The notes under the pieces were generated by a model that saw only the letters and a program-made list of their open reading frames with translations, had not been told where the DNA came from and did not search any database. Made by a program: the position numbers and the translations under genes. From Candidatus Aminicenantes bacterium (lineage in GTDB: Bacteria; Acidobacteriota; Aminicenantia; UBA2199), in NCBI GenBank assembly GCA_016934745.1, contig JAFGSF010000002.1:15972-79971 (forward strand): DNA of 64,000 nt, given 5' to 3'. Shown piece by piece: positions 45,383-52,329 of the stretch. Position 1 is the stretch's first letter. Every line of letters begins with the position of its first letter.

Positions 45383-47410
45383 ATGACCAAGACCATAAAA
45401 AGTTCTTTGAATTTGTCCCTGCCCGCCGAATTGCCTGGTAAAAAAGAATTTATCGCCGGCATTCGCCGCGCCCCGGATCGGGGCTTTTCCCTGACCCCTG
45501 CCCAGACTCAGATAGCCCTGAAAAACGCCCTGCGCTACATTCCCGAGACTTTGCATGAAGAGATCGCCCCCGAGTTTCTCGATGAATTGCTGACGCGCGG
45601 ACGCATCTACGGCTACCGTTACCGCCCCGAAGGCTCGCTGAAAGCCAAGGCCATCGACGACTATCCAGGCAGGATCGTCGAGGCCAGGGCTTTCCAGGTG
45701 ATGATCGACAACAACTTGGATTTCGATGTGGCCCTGTATCCCTACGAACTGGTGACCTACGGTGAGAGCGGACAGGTTTTCCAGAACTGGATGCAGTATC
45801 GGTTGGTCAAGCTCTACCTGCAGGAAATGACCGATCGCCAAACCCTGGTCGTTTATTCGGGCCATCCGCTTGGGTTGTTCGAGTCCCGCCCGGATGCGCC
45901 GAGGGTCATCTCGACCAACGGCATGCTGGTTGGCATGTACGACAACCTGGCCGGCTTTAGCCAGGCAGCGGCCATGGGGGTTTCCAACTACGGCCAGATG
46001 ACGGCCGGCGGCTGGATGTACATCGGTCCCCAGGGCATCGTCCACGGTACCTACCTCACCTTGCTCAATGCCGGGCGACTGTACCTGGGTATTCCCGCCC
46101 GGGAAAACCTGGCCGGCAAGGTCTACCTGAGTTCGGGGCTGGGTGGCATGAGCGGTGCCCAGGGCAAGGCTGTGGAAATCGCCGGCGGCATCGGCGTGCT
46201 GGCCGAGGTCGACGAATCGCGCATCCAGACCCGCTACAAGCAGGGTTGGGTCGGCAAGGTCTCCGCCGACCTCGATGAGATCGCCCGCTGGATCACAGAA
46301 TTCCGTAAATCTAAAAAGCCCATATCCATAGCCTATCACGGCAATGTCGTGGATCTCTGGCAATATATGCTGGATCACGGCATCCCCATTGAGCTGGCTT
46401 CGGACCAGACCTCCTGCCACGACGCCTATGGCGGCGGCTACACACCGGCCGGGATTTCATTCGCGGAAGGGCGGCGCCTGCTTCGTGAAAATCCCGAGCT
46501 TTTTCGCAAAAAAGTCGACGAATCATTGGTTTGTCAATTCCGCCTGATCCAAAAAATGGTGGCTCAAGGCACCCATTTCTGGGATTACGGTAATTCTTTT
46601 TTAAAGGCAGTTTTTGATGCCGGCGCTATCGATATCGCGGCCAACGGCATCGATCCCAGCGGTGGTTTCGTTTTTCCCAGTTATGTTGAACACATTATGG
46701 GTCCCCTGGGCTTCGATTTTGGCTACGGACCGTTTCGCTGGGTTTGCCTGAGCGGTCAGGTGCAAGATCTTGCCAGGACTGACCATGCGGCCATGTCCTG
46801 CCTTGATTCGGGACGGCGGGCCATGGACCGTGACAACTACGAATGGATCAAAAATGCCGCTAAAAACAGGCTGGTGGTCGGAACGCAGGCGCGTATCCTC
46901 TACGCCGATGCCGAGGGCCGGGTGGCGATCGCCCTGAAATTCAACGAATTGGTGCGCCGCGGCGAGATCGGTCCGGTCATGCTCGGCCGTGACCATCACG
47001 ATGTTTCCGGGACCGATTCGCCCTTTCGGGAAACGGCCAATATCCTTGATGGCAGCAATGTCACCGCCGATATGGCCGTGCACAACTTTGCCGGTGATGC
47101 CGCCCGCGGCATGTCCATGGTAGTACTGTCCAATGGCGGCGGCGTGGGCATCGGCAAGTCGTTCAACGGCGGTTTCGGGCTGGTACTGGACGGCAGCGAG
47201 GCCAAGGATCGCATTATTCGTTCAGCCATGGAGTGGGACGTGATGAACGGCATCGCCCGCCGCGCCTGGGCGCGCAACGAGAACGCCATGGAAACAGCCG
47301 CTACCTGGAACGAGCAACACCACGGCCGCGGCCATGTCACCCTGCCGCATCTGGCCGACGACACGCTGGTCAGCGACTTGGTCGAGAAGAAATTCCCTGA
47401 GGAAAAATAG
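45383..47410 (+). CDS. hutU: Urocanate hydratase (long form)
   Basis: YGQMTAGGWMYIGPQGIVHGT, GLGGMSGAQ, SDQTSCH, GPFRWV, GRDHHD. Confidence 0.95.
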   Translation: MTKTIKSSLNLSLPAELPGKKEFIAGIRRAPDRGFSLTPAQTQIALKNALRYIPETLHEEIAPEFLDELLTRGRIYGYRYRPEGSLKAKAIDDYPGRIVEARAFQVMIDNNLDFDVALYPYELVTYGESGQVFQNWMQYRLVKLYLQEMTDRQTLVVYSGHPLGLFESRPDAPRVISTNGMLVGMYDNLAGFSQAAAMGVSNYGQMTAGGWMYIGPQGIVHGTYLTLLNAGRLYLGIPARENLAGKVYLSSGLGGMSGAQGKAVEIAGGIGVLAEVDESRIQTRYKQGWVGKVSADLDEIARWITEFRKSKKPISIAYHGNVVDLWQYMLDHGIPIELASDQTSCHDAYGGGYTPAGISFAEGRRLLRENPELFRKKVDESLVCQFRLIQKMVAQGTHFWDYGNSFLKAVFDAGAIDIAANGIDPSGGFVFPSYVEHIMGPLGFDFGYGPFRWVCLSGQVQDLARTDHAAMSCLDSGRRAMDRDNYEWIKNAAKNRLVVGTQARILYADAEGRVAIALKFNELVRRGEIGPVMLGRDHHDVSGTDSPFRETANILDGSNVTADMAVHNFAGDAARGMSMVVLSNGGGVGIGKSFNGGFGLVLDGSEAKDRIIRSAMEWDVMNGIARRAWARNENAMETAATWNEQHHGRGHVTLPHLADDTLVSDLVEKKFPEEK

Positions 47411-47492
47411 TCCTGACAAAAACGATTGAATCATGGGCGGTTTTGCCGTATAATTGAGCTTGCTAGCTGACCGGAACAAGGAGAAAATGCCC

Positions 47493-49256
47493 ATGGGATT
47501 AGTTAAAAAAGGTAAGAATCTCTGGTTCTTTGAAGATCTCTATACTGATGCCACCTATGGTTTTCAAGTGTCGCAGGTGATCGTGCCCGAAACCGACACC
47601 GGCTTCCAGAAGCTGATGATCCTGGAGACCGACCGTTTCGGTCGGGTGCTGGTGCTGGACGGCATCGTGCAGTTGACCGAAGAAGACGAGGGCATCTATC
47701 ACGAATGGATCGCCCATTGGCCCATCTTTGCCCTGAACCGGCCGGCTAGGCACGTGCTGATCATCGGCGGCGGTGACTGCGGCGTGGCCCGGGAAGTGCT
47801 GCGCCACAAATCGGTTGAAAAAGTGACCATGGTCGAGATCGACCGCATGGTCTGCGACCTGTGTCGTGAGCATATGCCCGCCGTGTGCGAAGGTGTCTAC
47901 GAAGACCCCCGGTTTAAATTGATCATCGGCGACGGTGCCGAAGTGATCCGCCAGATGAAGGGCAAGTGCGACGTGATTGTTATCGATTCCACCGATCCGA
48001 TCGGTCCGGCCAAGAGTTTGTTCAACACCGATTTTTACCAGAGCGTCTATGACGCCTTGGTCGAAGGCGGCATCACCATCCACCAGACCGGGGCACTGAT
48101 CCTGCAGCCTTTCGAAGCGCCGGGAAGCTGGCGCCAGATCGAGCGTTCCTTTGACGACGTGCGCGTGGTGCAGTTTTCCAACGTCAGTTATATGGGCGGC
48201 CCTTTCAGTTTGACGGCCGGCTCCAAGGGCAAGGGCGTTTTCAAGAAAGCCGAGCGCAATGCCCAGAAAGCGTTCAAGAAAGCGGGGATCAGGACCAGTT
48301 GGTACTCGCCGCAGATATCGGCCGTTCCCTATCCCGAGTTCCAGAAGCGGCTGGAGACCGACAAGTACGGCGAAGAGATCGTCATGGACATCGAGCTCCC
48401 GGCCAACAGCCGGCCCAATGCCAGGCAGGTGTCCAAGTGGGCCCTGCAGACGTGCGATGCCATCAATATGTTGGCATTCGGCGAACCGATCTTTGCTGGC
48501 GACAAGCTGGTCGATGGCGAAACGCTGGTGCAATATGTCGAGACCAGCGCCATCAGCTACCGGCGCTACGGGCGGGCCGGAGTGCTCAACTGTTTCACCT
48601 GCGCCGCCCTGCCTGTGGAAGATGCCATCCGTTTTTCGCTTGAATACTTCAAGACTGGAAAAGCATTATGCTGGCACTTGCCGCGCGGGTCCTTTGCCGA
48701 CATAAAAAAAATTAGGCAAGGCACGCGGATTTTTGAATACGACTTGGCCCATGCCGGAATCTCCCGGGTATTCCAGCCGCGGTTAATCGAAAGCGCCGAG
48801 GCATTCAGCCGCGATTTTGGCTTTTTCAAGGAAAAGGGGCCTGAGCAATTTGAACTGATCCTGGACCTTTATAATTGCGACTATAGCAAAATATCCAGTT
48901 CGGCCGCCGTGGCCCGCTGGGCGGGAAGTGATTTTCCGAAAATCACCGGCCTTAAAGCGGTTGGGCAGGCTGACGCCCCCGATTTCGGTCATGCCAAAAA
49001 GAAGACGGCCGGTCCCTCGGTGGTGCAACTGCTTGAAGGCGGATCGAATATCAGCCATTATTCGGTCAATTGGCTTATGATTGTGGTCAATATCGTTTCC
49101 AAAAAGAGGTTTTCCCTGGAAAAAACCATCCGCCAGACCATGAAGTATTTCAAGGGGACGTATGCGGTTTGCTGGCTACTGCCCCGGGGGAACTCCGGGC
49201 AGCCCTTGAAGCAGGTGGCCGAAAACACTTTTATTTTTGCCGTAGAAGCCAAGTGA
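47493..49256 (+). CDS. speE: Spermidine synthase fused to two C-terminal AdoMet-decarboxylase-like domains
   Basis: LDG..Q, YHE, IGGGD.G..RE, VEID, DSTDP; then two ~110-aa repeats each ending LPRG; TTGAAT-17-TATAAT promoter (47426-47454) excludes the TTG start. Confidence 0.9.
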   Translation: MGLVKKGKNLWFFEDLYTDATYGFQVSQVIVPETDTGFQKLMILETDRFGRVLVLDGIVQLTEEDEGIYHEWIAHWPIFALNRPARHVLIIGGGDCGVAREVLRHKSVEKVTMVEIDRMVCDLCREHMPAVCEGVYEDPRFKLIIGDGAEVIRQMKGKCDVIVIDSTDPIGPAKSLFNTDFYQSVYDALVEGGITIHQTGALILQPFEAPGSWRQIERSFDDVRVVQFSNVSYMGGPFSLTAGSKGKGVFKKAERNAQKAFKKAGIRTSWYSPQISAVPYPEFQKRLETDKYGEEIVMDIELPANSRPNARQVSKWALQTCDAINMLAFGEPIFAGDKLVDGETLVQYVETSAISYRRYGRAGVLNCFTCAALPVEDAIRFSLEYFKTGKALCWHLPRGSFADIKKIRQGTRIFEYDLAHAGISRVFQPRLIESAEAFSRDFGFFKEKGPEQFELILDLYNCDYSKISSSAAVARWAGSDFPKITGLKAVGQADAPDFGHAKKKTAGPSVVQLLEGGSNISHYSVNWLMIVVNIVSKKRFSLEKTIRQTMKYFKGTYAVCWLLPRGNSGQPLKQVAENTFIFAVEAK

Positions 49257-49370
49257 ATTTTTCCCAATTTTAATGTCAATTCCTTGGAGATTACTGAAGA
49301 ATAATTAATTAACCTAATAAATCTGACAATAATGCACTAAATTAATTGTAACAATTCTATTATTAATTTG

Positions 49371-49399
49371 TTGACAAACATGTTATTTTAATTTATATT
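49371..49399 (+). promoter_or_regulatory. Sigma70-type promoter of dnaK
   Basis: TTGACA-17-TATATT in an AT-rich region. Confidence 0.6.
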
Positions 49400-49427
49400 A
49401 TTAATATTCAAATTTAAGGAGTGACAT

Positions 49428-51347
49428 ATGGGTAGAATAATAGGAATTGATTTGGGTACAACCAATTCGGCCGTGGCGATAATGGAAAAAGGTGATGTGA
49501 AGATCATTACCAATTCAGAAGGAGGGCGGACCACCCCGTCGGTTGTCGGTTTTACCAAGGACGGCGGGCGCCTGGTCGGCCAAGTGGCCAAAAGACAATC
49601 GATCACCAATCCGGAAAATACCGTCTATTCCATCAAGAGATTCATGGGCCGACGCATTTCCGAAGTCAAGGACGAGATTAAAATGGTCCCTTACAAAGTG
49701 GTCGGTGGTCCTAATGACGACGCCCGGGTCAGTATCGAGGGCAAGCAGTATTCGCCGCCCGAAATTTCGGCCTTGATCCTGCGGAAGCTCAAAGAAGCCG
49801 CTGAAGATTACCTGGGTGAAAAAGTCACGGAAGCGGTGATCACGGTCCCGGCTTATTTCAATGATGCCCAGCGCCAGGCTACCAAGGATGCAGGCAAGAT
49901 CGCCGGTTTGGAGGTCAAGCGCATTATCAACGAACCGACGGCGGCGGCCCTGGCTTACGGCATGGACAAGAAGAAAGACGAACTGATCGCTGTTTATGAT
50001 TTCGGCGGCGGAACTTTTGACATCTCGATTCTGGAGATCGGTGAAAATATCGTGGAAGTCAAATCCACCAATGGCGACACCCATCTGGGTGGCGACAACA
50101 TCGATCAGAGACTGATTGACTGGATTGCCGAAGAATTCAAAAAAGACCAGGGGATAGACTTGGCCAAGGATAAGATGGCCCTACAGCGCCTGAAGGAAGC
50201 TGCGGAGAAAGCAAAGATCGAGCTTTCGACAACCCAGGAAACTGAGATCAATCTGCCGTTCGTGACTGCCGATGCCTCGGGGCCCAAGCATCTGGTACTG
50301 AAGTTAAGCCGCTCCAAACTGGAACAGCTGGTAGGTGAAATAATCGAGCGTTCGATTGCCCCGTGCAAGCTGGCTATCAAGGATGCCGGGATTAGCGTGG
50401 CCGATATCAAGGAAGTCATTCTGGTCGGCGGCATGACCCGCATGCCATATATCCAGGAACTGGTCAAGAAGTTTTTTGGCCGCGAAGGTAACAAGAGCGT
50501 CAATCCCGATGAAGTCGTCGCCGCGGGTGCGGCAGTGCAGGGAGGCGTTCTGGGCGGTGAAGCCAAGGATATTTTGCTGCTCGACGTAACGCCGTTGTCC
50601 CTGGGCATCGAAACCTTGGGCGGCATCTCGCACAAACTGATTGAACGCAATACCACCATCCCGACAAAGAAAACCGATATTTTTACGACGGCTGAGGACA
50701 ATCAATCCACCGTTGAAATCCACGTGCTGCAGGGTGAAAGGGAAATGGCCCGCGACAACCGCACGTTGGGCAAGTTTCATCTAACCGGGTTGCCGCCGGC
50801 GCCACGCGGCGTCCCGCAAGTGGAAGTGACCTTTGACATCGATGCCAATGGCATCTTGAACGTTTCGGCCAAAGACCTGGCTACCAACAAGCAGCAAGCC
50901 ATTACCATCACCTCGTCAAGCGGCCTGAATGAAAAAGAAATAGACAAAATGGTTAAAGACGCTGAAAAATTCCGTGCCGAGGATCAACAGAAAAAAGATG
51001 CGATTGAAAACCGCAACAAGCTCGACCAGTTGTGTTACTCTTTGGAAAAACTGGTCAAGGAAAACAAGGATAAAATTCCCGAATCCATGGCCAGCGAAGT
51101 GGAGGCGGCTGTCACGCATGCCAAGGAAGTGGTGGAAAAGGGAGAGAATCAGCAGATCCTGGATGAAATTGAAAGCATGAACAAAGTGACCAGCAAGTTA
51201 TCCACTGAAATGTACAAGAGCGCCGGAGCGCAAAAAGAACCCCAACCCGGTCCCGATGCCGACCAAGGCCAAGAAGGCGATTCACCGGCCAATGAAGGTG
51301 AAGTCATTGACGCCGAGTTTGAAGATATCGGCAAAAACAAAAAATAA
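49428..51347 (+). CDS. dnaK: Chaperone DnaK
   Basis: [41 protein letters not shown]. Confidence 0.98.
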
Positions 51348-51364
51348 ATTTTATTTTCTCAAAA

Positions 51365-51399
51365 AAAGGGCAGTGGCCGTACTGCCCTTTGCTTTTTTT
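51365..51399 (+). terminator. Rho-independent terminator of dnaK
   Basis: AAAGGGCAGT-GGCCGT-ACTGCCCTTT followed by a T run. Confidence 0.85.
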
Positions 51400-51441
51400 G
51401 CCTGAATATGATAAATTTTATATACCACTTCAGGAGGTTCC

Positions 51442-52329
51442 ATGAAAAGAGTACTTTTTTCAGCAATTTTGCTGATAACACTGTTTTTTGCTTTTTGCAG
51501 TAAAAAAGTCGATCACCAAGGCGTAGACCTGCAAGTCAAACTGACTCCTGCATCGGTTACCGATTCTCTGTACCTCAAAATGGATTATATATTTAAAACT
51601 GAAAAGGAATTTAAAAAATTCAACACCGATTACAATGTATTTGTCCATTTCTGGCGGGTAAACAGCAAGGAAATGCTGATCCAGGACGACCATGTGCCTG
51701 TAAAACAAACCAGTAGCTGGGACCAGAACGAGCAAATAGAGTATTCCCGGGTTTTATTTATCCCTCAGTTTTTAAATGAATTTGATGTTGATTTTGAAGG
51801 GTATGAAGAAGTCAATCTGTCCATCGGCTTGTACAACCTGAAATCAGCCGGCAAGGAAAAACCGATTATCTTGTTTGAGAAAAAAATCAACATTCAACCG
51901 GCCTCATTCAATGCTCCGGAAATTGTGTATGATGAAGGCTGGAACGGACTTGAAATCGATGTCAATGCCAGTGATACATTTCACCGCAGTTGGCGCTGGA
52001 CCATGTCCAAAGCGGTTTGCATCATCGAGAATCCAAAAAAAGAGTGCACCTTGATTATCAAAGGCGGCGTGAGCAAAACGGTTTTTCCAGATCAGAAAGT
52101 CACTTTTAAAATCAATGATTCTTTACTTGAAGAATTTGTTCCCACTGACGCTTTGTTTTCACGGGAATATAGTATCAGCCCGGAGCAGATGGGCAACGGA
52201 GATGAATTTTTCCTGAAGATTGAAACCGATAAGGTTTTTATTCCGGCCAGGGTTTTTCCCGGAAGCAATGACAGCCGCGAACTCGGTTTGCAGATCTTTT
52301 TTGTTTATTTTCGCGAAAAGCTTGACTGA
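51442..52329 (+). CDS. Hypothetical exported protein or lipoprotein
   Basis: AGGAGG RBS; signal peptide with Cys (FAFC); VFVHF...DDH beta-rich domain. Confidence 0.7.
   Translation: MKRVLFSAILLITLFFAFCSKKVDHQGVDLQVKLTPASVTDSLYLKMDYIFKTEKEFKKFNTDYNVFVHFWRVNSKEMLIQDDHVPVKQTSSWDQNEQIEYSRVLFIPQFLNEFDVDFEGYEEVNLSIGLYNLKSAGKEKPIILFEKKINIQPASFNAPEIVYDEGWNGLEIDVNASDTFHRSWRWTMSKAVCIIENPKKECTLIIKGGVSKTVFPDQKVTFKINDSLLEEFVPTDALFSREYSISPEQMGNGDEFFLKIETDKVFIPARVFPGSNDSRELGLQIFFVYFREKLD

Follow-up and report, generated by a model that had tools for sequence, protein, structure and literature searches.

The window analysed here, a 64,000-nucleotide stretch of contig JAFGSF010000002.1 from a Candidatus Aminicenantes bacterium (Acidobacteriota; class Aminicenantia), carries a gene in which a SpeE-type aminopropyltransferase is followed by two tandem domains with the fold of SpeD, the S-adenosylmethionine (AdoMet) decarboxylase (AdoMetDC). 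The enclosing open reading frame (ORF) spans 47454-49256 on the forward strand, and from the ATG at 47493 it encodes a protein of 587 amino acids (aa), the modal length among the homologues collected (51 of 121, the window protein counted in). In the N-terminal part, the tetramerisation domain Spermine_synt_N (PF17284; residues 11-63, 40.2 bits) and the catalytic domain Spermine_synth (PF01564; residues 67-239, E 9e-48, 162.7 bits) were both found over the Pfam cut-off; among NCBIfam models, the cut-off of PRK00811 was passed (286.5 versus 260 bits), and that of TIGR00417 speE was slightly missed (240 versus 249.55). Judged by sequence, the N-terminal ~280 residues form a normal, intact aminopropyltransferase of the spermidine synthase type, with putrescine as the presumed acceptor amine. 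About 150 family members carry no database name other than 'spermidine synthase' or 'polyamine aminopropyltransferase'.

The remainder of the protein consists of two homologous SpeD-fold (class 1b) domains. Compared by BLASTP (48315-48740 versus 48741-49253), the two repeats are 31% identical over 129 residues (E 9e-10), and both scored 50-70 bits in 43 of 43 family members on a custom hidden Markov model (HMM) built from 111 standalone SpeD homologues, tandem sequences excluded. An earlier note on this DNA, made from the letters alone, had proposed two tandem repeats after SpeE, each beginning with E-(I/L)-(V/I)-x-D and finishing with L-P-R-G; the BLASTP and HMM scores bear out the repeats, and the motifs are seen in the alignment. 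A Pfam search, which the note had suggested as a check, gave no assignment over cut-off: AdoMet_dc (PF02675) scored 20.7 bits on the whole protein and 23.4 on the C-terminal part, short of the 25 bits required, with no match for repeat 1 alone and E 0.19 for repeat 2 alone, whereas the custom HMM matched both repeats. The profile of class 2 AdoMetDC (PF01536) gave no match on the fusion up to E 10, and PDB sequence searches with the C-terminal part and with its 43-sequence profile gave none.

By HMM-guided alignment, the catalytic residues are split complementarily between the repeats, so that only one composite site is possible and the other site would be dead. Repeat 1 presents Gln347, then Glu350-Thr351-Ser352, then Arg357 at the His position and Phe-Thr-Cys370; repeat 2 presents Ser509, then Gln512, then Gly516-Gly517 at the Thr-Ser position, His522-Tyr523 and Lys537 at the Cys position. 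E350, T351, S352, R357, C370, S509, G517 and H522 are each found in 110 of 110 full-length homologues, among which the Phe498-Ser509 loop of repeat 2 is nearly invariant, Arg358 occurs in 100 of 110 and Lys537 is variable; in the 43-sequence alignment (A1), the complementary pattern held down to ~50% identity. In class 1b AdoMetDC, Ser55 and His68 are contributed by the partner protomer. S63, H68 and C83 of the Thermotoga maritima enzyme are described as essential for processing and catalysis (PMC10407285). The residue calls and codons of the earlier note proved right (S352 at 48546, C370 at 48600 and H522 at 49056, with S509 13 residues before H522), including Arg at the His position of repeat 1 (R357) and Gly and Lys at the Ser and Cys positions of repeat 2 (G517, K537), and its single-active-site pseudo-dimer tethered to SpeE agrees with a split conserved in 110 of 110. 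Its placing of the S55 equivalent in repeat 2 stood in so far as S509 lies there, but repeat 1 also keeps a hydroxyl at that position (T344; Thr in 104 and Ser in 6 of the 110).

Repeat 2 also carries a conserved Ser518, one residue past the pyruvoyl position. As a second cleavage site it was rejected: the HMM alignment sets Gly517 at the pyruvoyl position, and a site at Ser518 would be served by Arg357 and Lys537, not by His and Cys.

The same division of residues was found in two unrelated tandem SpeDC-like proteins that have no SpeE part, P0170 (258 aa) and P0178 (269 aa). In each, Thr-Ser and Cys lie in one domain and His in the other, the order along the chain being opposite to that of the window tandem, and the His position of the catalytic domain is taken by Arg in P0170 and by Trp in P0178. 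This split into residues acting in cis and in trans is independent support for a partner-donated His. In two further tandem SpeDC-like proteins without a SpeE part (P0193 and P0208), the first domain is degenerate and the second is intact.

Table 1. Features of the fusion gene and its flanks, in positions of the window.
Feature	Position	Strand	Length or basis
Whole gene, SpeE followed by SpeD-fold repeat 1 and SpeD-fold repeat 2	47493..49256	+	587 aa plus stop
Aminopropyltransferase (SpeE) module, residues 8-276	47514..48320	+	PF17284, PF01564, PRK00811
Repeat 1, residues 285-408, putative catalytic half (Gln347, Thr351, Ser352, Cys370; Arg357 for His)	48345..48716	+	Custom HMM (58 bits), alignment, conservation
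Thr351-Ser352 codons, predicted serinolysis site	48543..48548	+	HMM alignment; start of human alpha-chain alignment
Cys370, equivalent of the catalytic Cys (T. maritima C83)	48600..48602	+	Conserved in 110/110, alignment
Repeat 2, residues 437-575, putative non-cleaving half (Phe498-Ser509 loop, His522, Tyr523; Gly517, Lys537)	48801..49217	+	Custom HMM (68 bits), 1tmi_A, alignment
His522, sole catalytic His open to the composite site	49056..49058	+	Conserved in 110/110, alignment
Urocanate hydratase, upstream neighbour	45383..47410	+	Pfam Urocanase N, Rossmann-like and C domains; synteny
DnaK-like ORF of 639 aa, downstream neighbour	49428..51347	+	Name from a reading of the translation; flank common to sibling genera
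ORF of 295 aa after the DnaK-like ORF	51442-52329		Flank common to sibling genera

The tandem was also modelled with AlphaFold2 (residues 285-587, the 43-sequence alignment as input), which gave a predicted local distance difference test score (pLDDT) of 88.7 and a predicted template modelling score (pTM) of 0.90. The top Foldseek matches over the whole length of the model were chains of the T. brucei AdoMetDC/prozyme and the human AdoMetDC proenzyme, and T. maritima class 1b AdoMetDC fitted one repeat (TMt 0.86, root-mean-square deviation (rmsd) 1.8). In VIA-align, the human proenzyme (1jl0_A) aligned with Z 17.6 over 243 residues (model 2-303 versus chain 5-328), and 1tmi_A aligned on repeat 2 (model 165-287) with Z 10.6 and rmsd 2.3 over 116 residues. 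The alignment of the processed human alpha chains, whose first residue is 69, begins at model residue 69, immediately after Ser352; residues were mapped to solved structures by our own HMM alignment together with the aligned ranges of the fold search. Based on the full-length class 2 match and this alignment start, the repeats are predicted to pack like the two halves of class 2 AdoMetDC, with Ser352 at the pyruvoyl position; the AdoMetDC fold expected by the earlier note, and the interface it proposed to model, are reproduced in the prediction.

In a maturation scheme of this kind, serinolysis before Ser352 would yield a 39.4-kDa fragment (SpeE plus a short beta segment) and a 26.4-kDa pyruvoyl alpha chain, the latter comprising the remainder of repeat 1 and the entire repeat 2, and both fragments would stay associated. 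His522 (and Ser509) of repeat 2 would be given in trans, His522 aiding both processing and catalysis, while Cys370 would serve as the proton donor.

That the tandem might be catalytically dead, a structural or oligomerisation module, we consider very unlikely. Human spermine synthase does keep an inactive AdoMetDC-like N-terminal domain that is required for dimerisation (PMC12803844), its chain 3c6k_D was among the fold matches (Z 5.5), and AdoMet_dc of Pfam scores below cut-off. However, all 110 homologues, the most distant at ~50% identity, keep the full set of Thr-Ser, Cys and His, which would be unexpected for a scaffold, and the genomes would then have no putrescine source found.

As to the kind of decarboxylase, sequence comparison places both repeats by descent in the SpeDC clade of pyruvoyl L-ornithine decarboxylases. 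They matched the 140-aa SpeD2 of an Anaerolinea thermophila genome with E 3e-15 and 2e-12, versus an E of 0.007 (BLASTP), no significant similarity, for canonical SpeD1. The A. thermophila locus has successive ORFs of 150, 140 and 291 aa, of which the 140-aa protein is 55% identical to the SpeD2 of Aminicenantia (E 1e-50). In the account of PMC10407285, the 140-aa SpeD2 of A. thermophila and the 127-aa SpeD2 of Atribacteria are ornithine-specific pyruvoyl decarboxylases (SpeDC), clustered with a second speD and with speE; in the two intact SpeD1-SpeD2 fusions assayed there, ornithine decarboxylase (ODC) activity is assigned to the second domain, as mutagenesis confirmed for that of Desulfotignum phosphitoxidans. 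The A. thermophila 140-aa and Atribacterota 127-aa members of our trees are presumed counterparts of these assayed proteins.

The same source gives four residues, Gln, Thr, Phe and Tyr, as diagnostic of SpeDC. In our alignment of 16 standalone proteins, Gln, His-Phe and Phe-Ser-Cys are invariant, Glu-Thr is nearly so and a Tyr mostly stands six residues before the Cys, which fits that description with the positions assigned by our own alignment; by the same mapping, the tandem keeps Gln347, Gln512 and Thr351. The canonical signature, as seen in sibling SpeD1 proteins, is Glu-Ser with the His five residues later in H-T-W-P-E, followed by F-T-C-G, and the Pro of the H-T-W-P-E-like motif is called fully conserved in PMC10407285. 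Neither repeat conforms to it, repeat 1 having Thr-Ser, Arg and no Pro, and repeat 2 having Gly and neither Pro nor Cys. Among 80 loci out of 512 relatives, the organisms included Omnitrophota, Patescibacteria, archaea of the DPANN group, Leptospira, Nitrospirota, Atribacterota and Anaerolineae, in agreement with the SpeDC distribution reported in PMC10407285.

To place the origin of the tandem, a profile search of 1.84 billion representatives was used, which returned 214 matches at E <= 0.001, of which 27 were scanned with Pfam. Nine of the 27 consist of Spermine_synth followed by one AdoMet_dc domain over cut-off (eight of 418-469 aa and one partial, of 308 aa), and in these single fusions the loop, Thr-Ser, His and Cys all lie in one domain. 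With the single SpeD domain of one of them, P0128, each repeat shares 39% identity (E 1e-30 and 2e-28), and the match runs on into the preceding linker and the trailing tail. In an IQ-TREE tree of 67 domains (-fast, with Shimodaira-Hasegawa-like approximate likelihood ratio test (SH-aLRT) support), repeat 1, repeat 2 and P0128 formed a clade with support of 100, and with four more single fusions one of 92.8; a FastTree tree of 168 domains agreed (support 0.93). In the former tree, the tandem and single fusions lay, apart from canonical SpeD1, inside a 50-tip clade (SH-aLRT 89). Its other members include second domains from SpeD1-SpeD2 fusions, SpeD2 proteins that stand alone in sibling genera of Aminicenantia, the 140-aa protein of the A. 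thermophila genome and a 127-aa protein of Atribacterota. The FastTree branches of the repeats measure 2.46 and 1.63 substitutions per site, versus 0.67 for the single fusions.

The similarity to P0128, the tree clades and the long branches together indicate that the tandem was made in situ, when a SpeE-SpeDC fusion that was already present had its SpeD domain duplicated, and that fast reciprocal degeneration followed. A duplication independent of the eukaryotic one, as the earlier note had envisaged, is in line with these trees and with the P0128 similarity, which place the origin in the bacterial SpeDC lineage. The halves of P0170 and those of P0178 are sisters in the tree (SH-aLRT 81 and 99.5, respectively), so that the duplications there were separate ones.

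In sibling genera, the interval between urocanase and dnaK is occupied by speD1 (canonical, 138 aa), speD2 (SpeDC type, 131 aa) and speE (276 aa). The window fusion stands at the same place, on the opposite strand (window 45383-52329 versus L059, L060 and L062): the speD1-speD2-speE operon has been replaced in place by the fusion.

The distribution of the architecture, a survey of which the earlier note had called for, was determined across 301 genomes of the class, 300 of them evenly sampled and the last being the window's own (G000), which is left out of the counts unless stated. Within the window's genus the full tandem was found in 25 of 27 genomes, and within one other family in 22 of 26. 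Canonical PF02675 was detected in 212 of the 301 genomes, but in 0 of 27 in the window's genus, and none was found in the window's own genome, which is 85% complete. Fusion gene copies are split or frame-shifted in some assemblies (G502:C6:44618-45499; P0127, P0129 and P0140), which could be sequencing errors or genuine decay. The window's own genome also encodes two more Spermine_synth-like domains, at C33:58596-59033 (+) and C19:43695-44183 (-), inside frames of 1230 and 808 aa that may be of the membrane-protein/SpdSyn-like fusion kind.

Where canonical SpeD is missing, another protein of AdoMetDC fold was found. A 407-aa protein (P0271) is encoded in the window's own genome outside the window (C49:11135-12355, minus strand; locus L067:1375-2598, minus strand), and it is present in 27 of 27 genomes of the genus and in five of the other family, exactly the fusion-bearing members of that family without canonical SpeD. 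Of the 48 fusion-bearing genomes (G000 included), 31 have only the 407-aa protein and 17 only canonical SpeD, with none having both and none having neither. The 407-aa protein shows a Glu-Glu-Ser-His site like that of canonical SpeD1, Thr-Cys-Gly and a later His-Val-Thr-Pro; its matches to PF01536 (18.8 bits) and TIGR00535 (E 0.005) are sub-threshold, and the first match of its model (pLDDT 63.5) was the human AdoMetDC proenzyme (E 1.5e-11, TMt 0.59-0.63). A PDB search with the profile of the family gave no match, and the gene neighbourhood held no polyamine or methionine-salvage context, the adjacent gene encoding an APH-family kinase without an NCBIfam name. Possibly the 407-aa protein is a bacterial class 2 AdoMetDC that has diverged deeply, and it is the most likely source of decarboxylated AdoMet (dcAdoMet) in this genome; in most of the sister family the source would be canonical class 1b SpeD.

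These separate AdoMetDC candidates bear on the idea of the earlier note that the tandem decarboxylates AdoMet as a single-site AdoMetDC and possibly channels dcAdoMet to the fused SpeE, which we now hold to be unlikely. In its favour, the modelled fold resembles AdoMetDC structures, no canonical class 1b SpeD was found in what is assembled of the window's genome or in any of the 27 genomes of its genus, and proteins are known that join, in the reverse order, the producer of an unstable and dedicated co-substrate to the enzyme using it (PMC11107197, PMC12803844). Descent from the clade does not settle the matter either: tblastn with the SpeD2 of Aminicenantes on phages found only Sinorhizobium phages and one Microcystis phage (a search with a second query gave no match), and the Sinorhizobium phage SpeD, 30% identical, is the closest phage relative of SpeDC-type proteins, that of phage phiN3 being described as a bona fide AdoMetDC inside the ODC clade (PMC9992855). 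Against an AdoMetDC stand the SpeDC-type motifs (Thr-Ser rather than Glu-Ser, and no Pro of the H-T-W-P-E-like kind), a similarity to canonical SpeD1 that is not significant, and the fact that the genus without canonical SpeD has the AdoMetDC-fold protein of 407 aa in every one of its 27 genomes. Moreover, were the tandem an AdoMetDC, 17 genomes would have two AdoMetDCs and in G467 no putrescine source was found; ornithine decarboxylation by the tandem would instead complete the route that leads from ornithine to spermidine. The clade placement, the speD1-speD2-speE synteny and the separate candidate in each fusion genome thus speak against AdoMet as the substrate, and they make the alternative that the earlier note held in reserve, a specificity for ornithine or arginine, the better reading.

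In five genomes of 92-97% completeness, agmatine deiminase (PF04371) and pyruvoyl arginine decarboxylase (ArgDC; PF01862) were each found in 0 of 5, and the agmatinase family (PF00491) reached its cut-off in 0 of 5, with one sub-threshold match of 19.5 bits; PF02784 was present in one of the five, and PF01276 (AAT-fold decarboxylase) at E <= 0.001 in two, one match scoring 27.2 bits versus a cut-off of 27. None of these matches makes a convincing decarboxylase of ornithine or arginine in the five genomes. G467 and G551, which have the fusion together with canonical SpeD, gave no PF01862, PF01276, agmatinase or agmatine deiminase; G551 has matches to PF02784, and it is in G467 that no putrescine source was found. 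The family PF02784 also contains diaminopimelate decarboxylase. PF02784 was not found in G058, G464, G446 or G467, which may thus do without the standard final reaction of lysine synthesis, unless they have a variant that escaped the search.

These results make it quite unlikely that the tandem is a decarboxylase of L-arginine (or another basic amino acid) whose product, agmatine or another amine, is aminopropylated by SpeE: with no agmatinase over cut-off and no agmatine deiminase in five of five good genomes, agmatine or aminopropylagmatine could not be converted, and the nearest assayed relatives are ornithine-specific (PMC10407285). Such a change of substrate has precedents, since arginine decarboxylase (ADC) is reported to have arisen several times from SpeD, that of Pelagiphage HTVC201P grouping with SpeDC (PMC10407285), and since N1-aminopropylagmatine synthases exist among bacterial aminopropyltransferases (PMC11107197); the loss of the fourth ODC diagnostic residue and the fast evolution of both repeats would also suit it.

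We therefore favour, as the probable function, a single-chain ornithine decarboxylase plus spermidine synthase. Ornithine would be converted to putrescine at the composite pyruvoyl site, and the fused SpeE would aminopropylate putrescine to spermidine with dcAdoMet from a separate enzyme; the fusion possibly gives channelling, or merely a fixed stoichiometry. Several observations weigh against this assignment. By our own mapping of positions, the diagnostic Tyr is gone from both repeats (Val364 and Val531) and the Phe position is occupied by Tyr523, and along branches of about 2.5 and 1.6, against 0.67 for single fusions, specificity could have drifted; the phage AdoMetDC in the ODC clade means that clade membership does not fix the substrate. 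The A. thermophila locus comes from a metagenome-assembled genome, and its match to the assayed BAJ63311 consists of the 140-aa length and the gene order only. The window's own genome is, as noted, incomplete, the alternation of the 407-aa protein with canonical SpeD reflects few independent events as the genomes are related, and the AdoMetDC role of the 407-aa protein comes only from a model of modest pLDDT, sub-threshold matches and the phyletic pattern.

A bolder version, possible but doubtful as a whole, is that the protein is a self-contained ornithine-to-spermidine module and an obligate single-chain pseudo-heterodimer, in which the step proposed to have given rise to eukaryotic class 2 AdoMetDC was independently replayed at least three times in the SpeDC lineage (the window family, P0170 and P0178), with the dead site (Arg357, Arg358 and Lys537) reused for regulation or for hand-over of putrescine to SpeE.

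Several known systems resemble parts of this architecture. SpeDC itself, which derives from class 1b AdoMetDC (Li, Liang, Phillips and Michael 2023, PMC10407285), shares with the repeats the fold, the clade and the signature of Gln and Thr-Ser, and it likewise is partnered with speE and a separate speD in genomes without the usual ADC and ODC. The SpeDC proteins described there, of ~120-200 aa, are presumably homodimeric like T. maritima AdoMetDC and have both sites intact, whereas in the window protein two copies follow SpeE on a single chain, one having lost His and the other Ser/Cys, the diagnostic Tyr is gone and the diagnostic Phe is replaced by Tyr. SpeD1-SpeD2 fusions, characterised from D. 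phosphitoxidans and Candidatus Omnitrophica, and from Victivallis vadensis with a degraded SpeD2, also have two SpeD-fold domains per chain, the V. vadensis protein having one cleavage site and a non-cleaving second domain; as described in PMC10407285, however, they pair a true AdoMetDC with an ODC-type domain of different origin, upstream of a separate speE. In the window protein, both domains are copies of one SpeDC domain, the losses are reciprocal (the catalytic half is without its own His) and the pair sits at the C terminus of SpeE.

The best structural matches are the eukaryotic class 2 AdoMetDCs (human 1jl0 and 1msv; T. brucei AdoMetDC/prozyme 5tvm), over ~300 residues with Z 16-17.6. 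They too are built as pseudo-dimers of class 1b-like halves: the N-terminal half contributes Ser and Cys and houses the single pyruvoyl site, and the His comes from the C-terminal half. The window tandem differs in having no PF01536 match, an independent bacterial SpeDC origin and probably another substrate.

Fusions of AdoMetDC with an aminopropyltransferase in one polypeptide are known from Candidatus Pelagibacter, a delta-proteobacterium and Candidatus Krumholzibacteria, and as animal spermine synthase; in the accounts given in PMC11107197 and PMC12803844, they have one N-terminal, canonical AdoMetDC domain, whereas the order is reversed and the domain doubled and of SpeDC type in the window protein. 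The earlier note's remark on known SpeD-SpeE fusions, namely that each has only one SpeD domain, agrees with what was found, but tandem SpeD1-SpeD2 proteins had already been characterised (PMC10407285). As a separate observation, a SpeDC-type domain lies N-terminal to SpeE in two Candidatus Diapherotrites records (L106:2489-3775 and L130:1123-2439; 428 and 438 aa), the reverse of the order in the window protein.

Closest of all, and the nearest relatives of either repeat, are the metagenomic single SpeE-SpeDC fusions (P0128, P0130, P0131, P0134, P0141 and others; 418-469 aa; one from Candidatus Paceibacterota), which have the same N-to-C order and the same loop ahead of the Ser509 equivalent; they differ in having Ser, His and Cys in one domain, and presumably dimerise between chains. 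Full-text literature searches found no paper on such single-domain fusions. Likewise, within the full-text literature, with subscription papers, supplements and figures outside its scope, SpeE followed by SpeDC, a SpeDC tandem and reciprocal loss in such a tandem were not found. Already in print, by contrast with these, are the tandem SpeD1-SpeD2 proteins (including one whose second domain is degraded), the fusions of AdoMetDC with aminopropyltransferase and the class 2 pseudo-dimer (PMC10407285, PMC11107197, PMC12803844).

The standalone SpeDC, the single SpeE-SpeDC fusion and the tandem with reciprocal loss are living intermediates on the path from a homodimeric pyruvoyl enzyme, which has a pair of shared active sites, to a fused pseudo-dimer that has a single site. 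The same route has been proposed for the origin of eukaryotic AdoMetDC; here it is taken in another enzyme lineage, and repeatedly. The reciprocal pattern amounts to a natural complementation map, in which Ser and Cys act in cis and His in trans. The 407-aa candidate, for its part, is relevant to the view of class 2 enzymes as an invention of eukaryotes. For ~150 proteins, the name 'polyamine aminopropyltransferase' is to be corrected, as they probably also supply the putrescine-forming step.

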